A stretch of 64,000 nucleotides of DNA, taken from Escherichia phage BAU.Micro_ELP-22. The notes under the pieces were generated by a model. That model made no database searches, was not told where the DNA came from, and worked only from the letters and a program-made list of their open reading frames with translations. Shown here in pieces: positions 3,625-39,995 of the stretch (its first letter is position 1; every line of letters begins with the position of its first letter). Both the position numbers and the translations under genes were made by a program. The stretch lies in sequence record OR699282.2. The stretch is one strand, 5' to 3'.

Positions 3625-4033
<409 letters not shown>

Positions 4034-38055: not shown

Positions 38056-38325
38056 ATGTACGCACTGTATAATAAAGAAAAGAAACGATTTGCTAAGGTT
38101 GAAATTTCGATTGATACATTTGATATGTTGGAGTACTGTATTGTAACTGACCTATATGCTAACTTGTATTACGTTCTTGATGACGTATCAGTACTGCAAC
38201 GATTGCTTGAGAATTCCAAAAGTCAATGCCAGGGCATCCATGATGGTTCATCTTATGAAACACCTGAGTGTTCCTACGGCTATCTGGACGGGTATGAGAT
38301 TGTGAAGTTGGGGATTGTTGAATAA
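38056..38325 (+). CDS. hypothetical protein
   Basis: ATG after GGAGA, immediately after upstream stop. Confidence 0.5.
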   Translation: MYALYNKEKKRFAKVEISIDTFDMLEYCIVTDLYANLYYVLDDVSVLQRLLENSKSQCQGIHDGSSYETPECSYGYLDGYEIVKLGIVE

Positions 38326-38416
38326 ATGGATTAAACAATGAAGAAGTGTATGATTCTTTGTTCTAATCACCATCGCATGGTACATTCTGGTAGACTATGT
38401 TTGATTGAAAGAAAAA

Positions 38417-38453
38417 AAAAGGGTTGACTTCAGTCGGCCCTTTTTGCTATAAT
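38417..38453 (+). promoter_or_regulatory. terminator-promoter stem-loop cassette (PeSL-like)
   Basis: A9-GGGTTGAC-TTCA-GTCGGCCC + T5 + TATAAT, then conserved leader CATTTCATC..GAGG. Confidence 0.65.
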
Positions 38454-38481
38454 CATTTCATCGAAACGAGAGGATGAATAC

Positions 38482-38997
38482 ATGACACGCATTAACTTAG
38501 TACACGTTAAAGAACTTGCTGACCAACATCTGATGGCTGAATATCGTGAACTCCCACGTGTATTTGGTGCTGTACAAAAACACGTTCAAGCACGTAAGCG
38601 TGTACGTGATTTCAAAATTAACAGTACTTACCTGTTGGGTTCAGGTCATGTAACATTCTTCTACAACAAGTTATTGTACTTACAGAAGCGTCATATTGAT
38701 ATTGTTAACGAATGTTTGCGTCGTGGTATGAAGATTCAAAACACTGAAGTAAACGACATTAGCGGATTCCCTGCTGAGTTTTGTAATGACTACGTACCAT
38801 CGGAGTCAGAGATTAAAATGTCTCGTGATCGTTTGATTGAGAAGCTCCAGATGAAGCCTAAGTGGTATAAGTTTACTGATGTTGAATGTCCACAGTACGT
38901 TAAAGATATGCAGAACGTAAGTAGTAAGAACGAATCTAGTACTGATATGTTCGACGAAATTGAAGAACAAATCAAAGATGAAATGAATAATTATTAA
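38482..38997 (+). CDS. denV: pyrimidine dimer DNA glycosylase (T4 endonuclease V-like) with acidic C-terminal extension
   Basis: [35 protein letters not shown]...RVRDFKI...[10 protein letters not shown] matches recalled T4 DenV nearly residue-for-residue at the N-terminus. Confidence 0.85.
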
Positions 38998-39035
38998 AGG
39001 AAAGGATTGACTTCGGTCACATAAAGGAACATAAC

Positions 39036-39230
39036 ATGTTATTAGTATATTCAAAGCGTTTCTGGATTTCTTTCATTGTACTTTCGCTAATCGGCTTCGG
39101 TGTGAGTATAATCTTTTCGTGGGATGAATTGGGTACATGGTATTATGAAGTTCCGTGGTACATGAAGATAGCTCCTTGTTATGCGGCATTGTTCGTGTCA
39201 TTCCTTATTGTTGTCTTCAGCGAGGATTAG
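39036..39230 (+). CDS. small membrane protein
   Basis: 64 codons; preceded by degenerate PeSL remnant at 39003-39030. Confidence 0.45.
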   Translation: MLLVYSKRFWISFIVLSLIGFGVSIIFSWDELGTWYYEVPWYMKIAPCYAALFVSFLIVVFSED

Positions 39231-39336
39231 TTGATGTAGTATTTGCTACACCAAAGTATTTGGATATTTTAGATATAAACATGGACACCTGTTCTATCTT
39301 TCTGTATTATGTACATCACCAAATGAGGAATACAAC

Positions 39337-39696
39337 ATGGCATCTTTAAGTGAAATCGCAGAATACAACCCACTAACAATCTCAACAATTCAACGTACAA
39401 AAACTTTTTATTTCCGTCCTGCTGATGGATGGAAACGTGGAATGAATGGTGACTATCGAGTACTGGAAGATTCACTAATCGAGCGTATCAACTCTGAACT
39501 ACAGAAGTATGAAGGTGTTAAAGTTGTGCGTTCAACTTCTCGTTATTTTGAGTACTACATTGAGTCTTCAACTGTAAATGAAAACTCATCATTATCGGTG
39601 GACAACACTGATATTCTTCGTAATGCAGTTGGTATGTTATGCAACATTGCAGAAGAAATGGGATTAACTATTAGTACTATGAGTGAGTTAGAATAA
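39337..39696 (+). CDS. hypothetical protein
   Basis: 119 codons, GAGGAA SD. Confidence 0.55.
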   Translation: MASLSEIAEYNPLTISTIQRTKTFYFRPADGWKRGMNGDYRVLEDSLIERINSELQKYEGVKVVRSTSRYFEYYIESSTVNENSSLSVDNTDILRNAVGMLCNIAEEMGLTISTMSELE

Positions 39697-39761: not shown

Positions 39762-39995
39762 ATGAAACTATCTTTTATACGATTGGCTGAATTCTTTGGT
39801 ACTGATGTAATTACTCTACAACAAATCGCAGATAATACATCATTAACTACACAAGAAGTACTTGATTTAGATGTAATTCAGTGCGATAATACTTCCATCG
39901 ATTACAAAGAAGGTCTTGTCGAAAAAGATAAGATTCAAGCTAAAATTAATGGTGCTGGACGGGTTCAGTACTGGAAAGGAGTTTTAAGTAAATGA
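39762..39995 (+). CDS. hypothetical protein
   Basis: 77 codons, AGAGGC SD. Confidence 0.5.
   Translation: MKLSFIRLAEFFGTDVITLQQIADNTSLTTQEVLDLDVIQCDNTSIDYKEGLVEKDKIQAKINGAGRVQYWKGVLSK

Follow-up and report, generated by a model that had tools for sequence, protein, structure and literature searches.

An optional acidic C-terminal helix conserved on endonuclease V of Rak2-like jumbo phages, a candidate docking module at a locus bordered by PeSL-like cassettes

The window analysed here, a stretch of 64,000 nucleotides (nt) of Escherichia phage BAU.Micro_ELP-22 (record OR699282.2), contains in its list of open reading frames (ORFs) a gene of 171 amino acids (aa) with an ATG start at 38482..38997 (+), whose product is a homologue of T4 endonuclease V (endoV, DenV) extended at the C-terminus by an acidic tail, and which is preceded by a composite terminator/promoter cassette (Table 1). 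The source phage is an Asteriusvirus (121Q/PBECO4-like, a Rak2-like jumbo phage) and not of the T4 type, although T4-like replication and repair genes are also present in the 121Q-like phage. By megablast, the DNA of positions 38300-39100 is 95-98% identical in about 40 phage records of about 350-380 kb, including Escherichia phages 121Q, PBECO4, vB_EcoM_G17, JP4, and E9.1, and the gene is named endonuclease V in the existing GenBank annotation of Asteriusvirus records; 121Q gp217 (AIT14107.1) differs from the window protein in three core residues and is completely identical to it from residue 132 onwards, tail included. T4 endoV homologues have previously been noted in a subset of jumbo phages (PMC7824862), and by its gene number the DenV homologue of phage CBB (CBB_519) belongs to the range CBB_390-546, where RpoD-like promoters cluster and where the authors suspect early genes (PMC5259590). 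The enzyme itself brings nothing new, since the gene is known and already annotated.

Table 1. Coordinates of the features at and around the denV gene of the window
Feature	Position	Strand	Basis or remark
Composite terminator/promoter cassette (PeSL-like; term explained in the text)	38416..38453	+	RNA fold, promoter scan, copy count
Shine-Dalgarno sequence GAGAGGA	38468..38474	+	7 nt 5' of the ATG; read directly from the sequence
DenV catalytic domain, codons 1-131 (pyrimidine-dimer DNA glycosylase/AP lyase)	38482..38874	+	Pfam, PHROG, and PDB matches; predicted fold
C-terminal extension, codons 132-143	38875..38910	+	In every jumbo-phage-type DenV, with or without tail (alignment of 23); replaces YGKAIYA of T4
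Variable low-complexity Ser/Asn/Thr-rich linker, codons 144-155	38911..38946	+	Unalignable between lineages
Conserved acidic amphipathic helix motif, codons 156-171 and stop	38947..38997	+	Conservation, hydrophobic moment, structure prediction
Truncated cassette copy, AGGAAAGGATTGACTTCGGTCA	38998..39019	+	3' arm, T-run, and -10 box missing; joined directly to the ribosome-binding site/start of the next ORF
Hydrophobic ORF of 64 aa	39036..39230	+	Apparently two membrane-spanning segments (by eye)
Cassette copies	27994, 31236, 31419, 32763, 33848, 38422, 39704, 41425	+	Near-identical

The assignment of the core to the DenV family is supported by profile, alignment, and structural comparisons. 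The Pfam model PF03013 (Pyr_excise) is matched with 56.4 bits (cut-off 23), and PHROG 1183 ('endonuclease V N-glycosylase UV repair enzyme') with E=1.2e-58 over residues 1-133, the profile of 139 positions stopping at residue 133; NCBIfam has no family for DenV or its neighbour ORFs, and a Pfam DUF6376 match over residues 104-167 was ignored, its 17.8 bits falling below the cut-off of 27.3. The T4 enzyme (PDB 2END, E=7e-53) aligns without gaps, residues 1-131 to 1-131, with 83 identical positions of the 131 (63%), which bears out the original prediction that about the first 135 residues track T4 endoV. In T4 endoV, the alpha-amino group of Thr2, freed by removal of Met1, attacks C1' of the 5' pyrimidine of the dimer with the assistance of Glu23, and the kinked DNA is held by Arg3, Arg22, Arg26, Arg117, and Lys121. 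The window protein begins with MTRINL, from which the Met would be removed before Thr according to the specificity of methionine aminopeptidase, and has E23 inside AEYRELPRV. In the two homologue alignments used for conservation, of 23 and 40 sequences, T2, R3, R22, E23, R26, R117, and Y129 are invariant, so that the alignment proposed earlier as a check on the catalytic N-terminal residues, Thr2 and Glu23, comes out in favour of a DenV enzyme; none of the 23 sequences departs from K121 or W128, and in the alignment of 40 the conservation of K121 is 90% or higher. The W128-Y129-K130 segment and all the other residues named above are kept from T4 endoV (PDB 2END, 1VAS), and the window protein reads WYKF where T4 has W128-Y129-K130-Y131, position 131 being F or Y in the jumbo-phage clade. 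A model of the window protein built with AlphaFold2 (AF2) on 40 homologues has a mean predicted local distance difference test (pLDDT) score of 88.9, and its predicted fold matches the all-alpha endonuclease V fold of 2END in Foldseek, with a template modelling score of 0.94 (target-normalised) and a root-mean-square deviation of 1.2 Å over 133 columns. Judged from family membership, the function is almost certainly incision at cyclobutane pyrimidine dimers by N-glycosylase and AP-lyase activities acting through the Thr2 amine.

Beyond this core, the window protein departs from the T4 enzyme, which has 138 aa, is strongly basic, and carries Y131, whereas the window protein has 171 aa, a net charge of 0, and Phe131, and is encoded in an Asteriusvirus genome of about 350 kb instead of a T4-like phage; in place of the final YGKAIYA of T4, it has 12 extension residues peculiar to its clade, followed by the linker and the conserved acidic helix. 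The C-terminus reads exactly as quoted in the original prediction, which had counted about 35 extra residues, and it exceeds the T4 length by 33; nevertheless, only about 28 residues (144-171) are a true add-on as judged from the alignment, since residues 132-143 also occur in the tail-less jumbo-phage DenVs. The acidic character ascribed to the extension holds for this shorter segment, with 8 acidic and 2 basic residues. The charge of residues 1-131 is +8 and that of residues 132-171 is -8, giving 0 for the full protein and an isoelectric point of 6.96, compared with 9.6 for the core. The linker is absent (length 0) in the 158-aa alleles P0003 and P0004 and has 8 residues in ph0011, 12 in the window, 17 in P0008, and 20 in P0012 and XbC2. 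In P0003 and P0004, for which protein sequences only were used, the short form looks like a deletion between two GATATG (Asp-Met) repeats that flank the linker (window 38905-38949), with 13 codons lost and the motif staying in frame after KDM. The terminal motif has the consensus D-x-[FY]-[DE]-x-[IV]-E-x-QIK[DE]EMNNY and a hydrophobic face made up of F157-I160-I164-M168-Y171, with a hydrophobic moment of 0.48 that is equalled in 0.16% of shuffles. In the AF2 model a helix is predicted over residues 138-169, with pLDDT of about 84 for residues 131-140, 66-69 for the linker, and about 80 for the motif.

The same motif ends the DenV of the Xanthomonas jumbo phage XbC2 (Mimasvirus; ...DDEYEDVERQIKEEMNNY), that of P0012, a metagenomic relative of XbC2, and that of a third lineage, P0008 (...SDPYEDIEQQIKDEMNLE). 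Identity to these lineages amounts to 73-80% in the cores and 56-62% in the last 16 residues, and all four lineages have E161, Q163, I164, K165, E167, M168, and N169 unchanged. In a set of seven Asteriusvirus alleles, D166N (in UE-S1) is the only change within the final 13 residues, and 4 of the 12 linker codons vary in amino acid, numbers too small for a codon-level selection test within the genus to decide. The invariance of the non-acidic positions Q163, I164, K165, M168, and N169 argues for a specific interface and not for bulk negative charge. Taken at the level of sequence, the comparison indicates that the tail is a real and conserved feature, not junk. A different long tail ends the DenV of P0023 (181 aa, metagenomic, from a CBB-like subclade; ...HDEFSEVADATWNEYYQENHF), which has in common with the window tail only the D-x-F-x-E-V start, the acidic/aromatic character, and the C-terminal aromatic residue, and which may either have diverged strongly from it or have been acquired independently. 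A literature search found no description of the tail, of the three-part architecture, of its conservation in Asteriusvirus and Mimasvirus, or of its presence/absence polymorphism.

Of about 41 related phage records, about 18 encode the tail, and the others are without it. Alleles of the PBECO4 type (AGC34989.1) have 144 aa, end in ...ELPEYYRSMI, and are without the linker, the motif, and the 64-aa ORF that follows, the DNA homology of PBECO4 to the window breaking off near 38890 and restarting near 39278. In a neighbour-joining tree of the cores, the tail-bearing genes fall into three subclades, each interleaved with tail-less sisters, which points either to repeated loss or to exchange of the 3' segment by recombination. 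Within one genus, the cores with and without a tail are about 95% identical and differ in no systematic way, and the tail therefore seems to work as a plug-in. Other changes are seen at the same 3'-end position. In the Salmonella phage SD-2_S15 (P0005, annotated 'endonuclease', 242 aa), residues 1-135 of DenV are joined in frame, through a deletion, to a downstream 119-aa protein from about its residue 13, corresponding to window 38482-38886 plus 39372-39696; the 119-aa protein belongs to PHROG 32140, of unknown function. P0010 and P0017 have unrelated aberrant DenV tails at this spot.

The cassette preceding denV (AAAAAAAAAGGGTTGACTTCAGTCGGCCCTTTTTGCTATAAT, 38413-38453) combines a predicted terminator with a predicted promoter. 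A 13-bp hairpin at 38416-38445 (-17.3 kcal/mol, z = -4.5) and a T-run after it give the shape of an intrinsic terminator; TTGACT (38424-38429), the -35 hexamer, lies inside the 5' arm of the hairpin and is separated by an 18-nt spacer from an extended -10 element, TGcTATAAT (38445-38453), and the promoter scan gives an 11/12 match to sigma70 plus the TG. The 23-nt core of the cassette is present in 8 copies in the window, all on the + strand and between 27994 and 41447, where 0 are expected from 100 shuffles, and the general make-up is an A-run, GGGTTGAC, a 4-nt loop, GTCAGCCC, a T-run, and TGnTATAAT. The cassette also stands 5' of denV in all seven of the other Asteriusvirus alleles examined, in XbC2 (locus L004), with identical stem arms and the loop GAGA instead of TTCG, and in the metagenomic contigs of P0008 and P0012 (loci L007 and L008).

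These elements recall the PeSLs (promoter-early/stem-loop), which are composite promoter/terminator motifs, about 40-50 bp long, bordering shuffled modules in T4-like phages (Arbiol et al. 2010, PMC2839356; Comeau et al. 2014, PMC4122927). Common to both are the association of a stem-loop with a near-consensus sigma70 promoter, the many near-identical copies in one orientation among small ORFs, the location at borders of insertions, deletions, and replacements between close relatives, and a stem form, A(n)GGG-loop-CCCT(n), that in the window resembles the nt-1 type. In contrast, the window cassettes have their -35 hexamer in the 5' arm of the hairpin, an 18-nt spacer, and an extended TGn -10 element, and they sit in Rak2-like jumbo phages (Asteriusvirus, Mimasvirus XbC2) and not in T4-like ones. 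In the literature search the term PeSL was used only for T4-like phages, and such elements are apparently undescribed outside them; therefore, 'PeSL-like' is a defensible term here. Of the earlier proposal that the gene is launched from a PeSL as a shuffled module, the hairpin/promoter cassette in its 8 copies and the rearrangements among relatives at these sites stand, while the name has to be weakened accordingly.

The rearrangements are seen on both sides of the gene. The truncated cassette copy at 38998-39019, joined to the 64-aa ORF in 121Q as in the window, forms no stable hairpin (-3.2 kcal/mol), and denV and the 64-aa ORF are probably co-transcribed, because no terminator lies between them. 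Neither PHROGs nor NCBIfam gave a match for this ORF, which 121Q, JP4, UE-S1, and Ec-M-J possess but PBECO4, BF17, and ph0011 do not; it was considered as an obligatory partner of the tail and rejected, since the tail-bearing denV genes of BF17, ph0011, XbC2, and the P0008/P0012 contigs lack it. In BF17 and ph0011, a complete cassette follows the tail-bearing denV at the position of the truncated copy of the window; after it comes, in BF17, a homologue of window ORF 39762-39995 (0.7 kb further on in the window) and, in ph0011, a homologue of window 41485-42252 (2.4 kb further on), and in the window each of these two genes has a complete cassette (39704 and 41425, respectively) immediately before it. 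These deletions and replacements at cassette borders, as far as genome comparison goes, fit denV as a shuffled accessory module. In ph0011 (locus L017), the genes on either side of the tail-bearing denV, one for a putative DNA N6-adenine methyltransferase and one for an AAA-ATPase, are not those of the window, although the flanking cassettes are the same. On the 5' side, the window carries at 38338-38412 (+) a remnant of a free-standing HNH homing endonuclease gene (MKKCMILCSNHHRMVHSGRLCLIER) adjoining the denV cassette, which equals the 137-aa HNH gene of JP4 minus about 339 bp, an in-frame deletion between two AAGTGTAT repeats; neither 121Q nor PBECO4 has an HNH gene at this site. A second class of consensus sigma70-like promoters was observed in the window at 3625, 4034, 4413, 22261, 26223, 36576, and 58678 (+), with a conserved spacer ending in a palindrome, (T)CAGTACTG, directly before TATAAT (for example TTGACTAAATAGTTCAGTACTGTATAAT); this palindrome could be an operator or a variant of the extended -10 element. 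TTGAC-N-TAnnnT sites in the window number 35 on the + strand and 4 on the - strand.

As to what the tail does, a tethered docking helix, along the lines of the interaction suggested in the original prediction, is the reading ranked first, tentatively and with close to an even chance of being correct, because a variable tether with a conserved helix, the lack of adaptation in the core, and dispensability make up the typical signature of a tethered linear motif. In such a mechanism, the host sigma70 RNA polymerase would transcribe denV early from the hairpin-terminator/promoter cassette, as suggested by the promoter consensus and by the placing of denV among small early-type ORFs, and the resulting enzyme would bear an optional modular appendage, a floppy linker of free length carrying a 16-residue acidic amphipathic helix, of which the hydrophobic face (F157, I160, I164, M168, Y171) would sit in a basic-lined groove of a partner protein. 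The partner would be a phage or host protein of DNA repair or replication, and docking would recruit the enzyme or pass on its nicked abasic product, with cancellation of the +8 charge of the catalytic core as a side effect of the tail; recombination within the 3' part of denV and at the cassettes on either side would swap the module or remove it. In its most explicit form, the tail would be a dedicated, sequence-specific peptide, swapped via PeSL-like cassettes, by which a base-excision glycosylase of a phage is linked to one particular partner, either the end-processing, ligation, or replication machinery of the phage or a host repair protein; this is possible but on the whole doubtful. Among the proteins of the phage repertoire, one may speculate on the 5'-3' exonuclease/RNase H, DNA ligase, polynucleotide kinase/3'-phosphatase, and recombination proteins as partners.

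The closest architectural parallels are the acidic C-terminal tails of E. coli SSB (SSB-Ct), T7 gp2.5 and gp4, and T4 gp32 (A-domain), which likewise consist of a flexible linker and a short acidic C-terminal peptide. The terminal aromatic Y171 of the window tail fits the SSB-Ct/gp2.5 architecture, whereas P0008 ends in ...NLE; moreover, the DenV tail has no sequence similarity to those peptides (e.g., to D-F-D-D-D-I-P-F), is carried by a DNA glycosylase, and forms a predicted amphipathic helix with a five-residue hydrophobic face. Besides docking partners, acidic tails of the SSB type compete with DNA for the basic surface of their own protein.

Several observations weigh against docking. The tail has been repeatedly lost, and any interaction must consequently be dispensable; conservation, by the identities given above, is somewhat lower in the motif than in the core, and P0008, ending in ...MNLE, is without the terminal aromatic residue; the AF2 tail is a single straight helix (138-169) of moderate confidence, which may be the default for a charged segment; and no docking partner was found. 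The searches for the motif on other proteins point the same way. With a hidden Markov model of the tail against all stop-to-stop ORFs of the complete 121Q genome, only DenV was recovered (45.6 bits), the next match being internal to an ORF and reaching 11 bits; a profile of six tails (48 columns) against a database of 5.8 billion proteins gave 17 candidates, none with E<=10; a phmmer search of 1.84 billion cluster representatives, among which that of DenV is probably tail-less, with the C-terminal 40 residues as query gave none at E<=0.001; and scans of IMG/VR with the back-translated degenerate motif returned 121Q only. A metagenome scan for E-x-QIK[DENK]EMN found 51 loci, one of them DenV (the P0008 contig) and the other 50 apparent chance matches in short or unrelated ORFs, which by eye resemble NusA, MscL, a helix-turn-helix protein, and O-antigen ligase. 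The tail is also unlike the C-terminus of the 121Q gp43-like polymerase. Two specific candidates were discarded in the course of these comparisons: a docking tag shared between proteins, since no second 121Q protein has the motif, and a clamp-binding peptide ('DMFD', compare the C-terminus of RB69 polymerase), since the 121Q polymerase ends in ...SVNNGFFTW and the F is not kept as in such a motif. Likewise, tblastn of the tail against 50,697 phage records retrieved DenV genes only, a weak match to XbC2 among them.

That neither an external partner nor a second carrier of the motif was found would suit an intramolecular role, in which the acidic helix shields, as an autoinhibitory element or DNA mimic, the basic DNA-binding face near WYK[FY], and this is the main rival to docking, although rather unlikely. 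T4 endoV is known for electrostatic one-dimensional scanning of DNA, and such an element would lower non-specific DNA affinity and tune this scanning; the acidic C-terminal tails of T4 gp32, T7 gp2.5, E. coli SSB, and HMGB1 are analogues. The exact cancellation of charge between the core and residues 132-171 agrees with this proposal, as do the dispensability of the tail, expected of a modulator, and its departure from the core directly after W128-Y129-K130-F131, a segment that in T4 endoV lies at the dimer-binding face. However, a polyanionic mimic needs no strict positions of the non-acidic Q, I, K, M, and N-N-Y, linkers of 0 or 20 residues are hard to fit with one fixed intramolecular geometry, the cores with and without a tail show no co-adapted differences, and the AF2 model, which is weak evidence, does not predict the tail folded back on the core.

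The patchy distribution of the tail, in fewer than half of the related records, the several losses or replacements in the tree, and the other accidents at the same spot (the SD-2_S15 fusion and the aberrant tails of P0010 and P0017), together with within-genus variation in counts too small for a formal selection test, are what would be expected of a neutral or near-neutral appendage, a 3'-end allele produced by recombination at a plastic locus and hitch-hiking with the gene and its cassettes. Such an origin is nevertheless improbable, given that QIK[DE]EMNNY is kept while the adjacent linker is unalignable, between lineages with 20-27% core divergence, and that the linker indels are always in frame with the motif kept (forms of 158, 167, 171, 176, and 179 aa). 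Finally, a C-terminal recognition tag for a protease/unfoldase or other regulatory machine, limiting the level or timing of DenV, would be in line with the ClpS-like, two ClpP-like, ClpYQ-like, and ClpA-like proteins encoded by 121Q and with the usual degron geometry of a motif at the extreme C-terminus behind a flexible linker, but it is pure speculation and very improbable, as the motif has no likeness to known C-terminal degrons such as ssrA ...YALAA and is found on no other phage protein, which is unusual for the degron class.

Whichever role the tail has, near-identical phages that carry a 28-residue tail, a 15-residue tail, or none on one and the same enzyme constitute a natural experiment, and this set of alleles would allow a direct measurement of what a tethered acidic helix does to a classic DNA-scanning glycosylase. 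T4 endoV is in use as a reagent and in photoprotection products, and a tail could be of practical value if it altered the salt dependence or the non-specific binding to DNA. At the level of the locus, the stem sequence of the cassette is common to the jumbo phages of E. coli (Asteriusvirus) and Xanthomonas (Mimasvirus), and the genome comparisons suggest that modular shuffling of the PeSL type, for which descriptions have come from T4-like phages alone, is at work in Rak2-like jumbo phages as well. If the docking reading is true, recruitment by a tethered linear motif would become known for a phage DNA glycosylase for the first time, in DenV of the Rak2-like jumbo phages, and cassette-mediated shuffling would reach beyond whole genes to sub-genic protein modules and beyond T4-like phages to jumbo phages.

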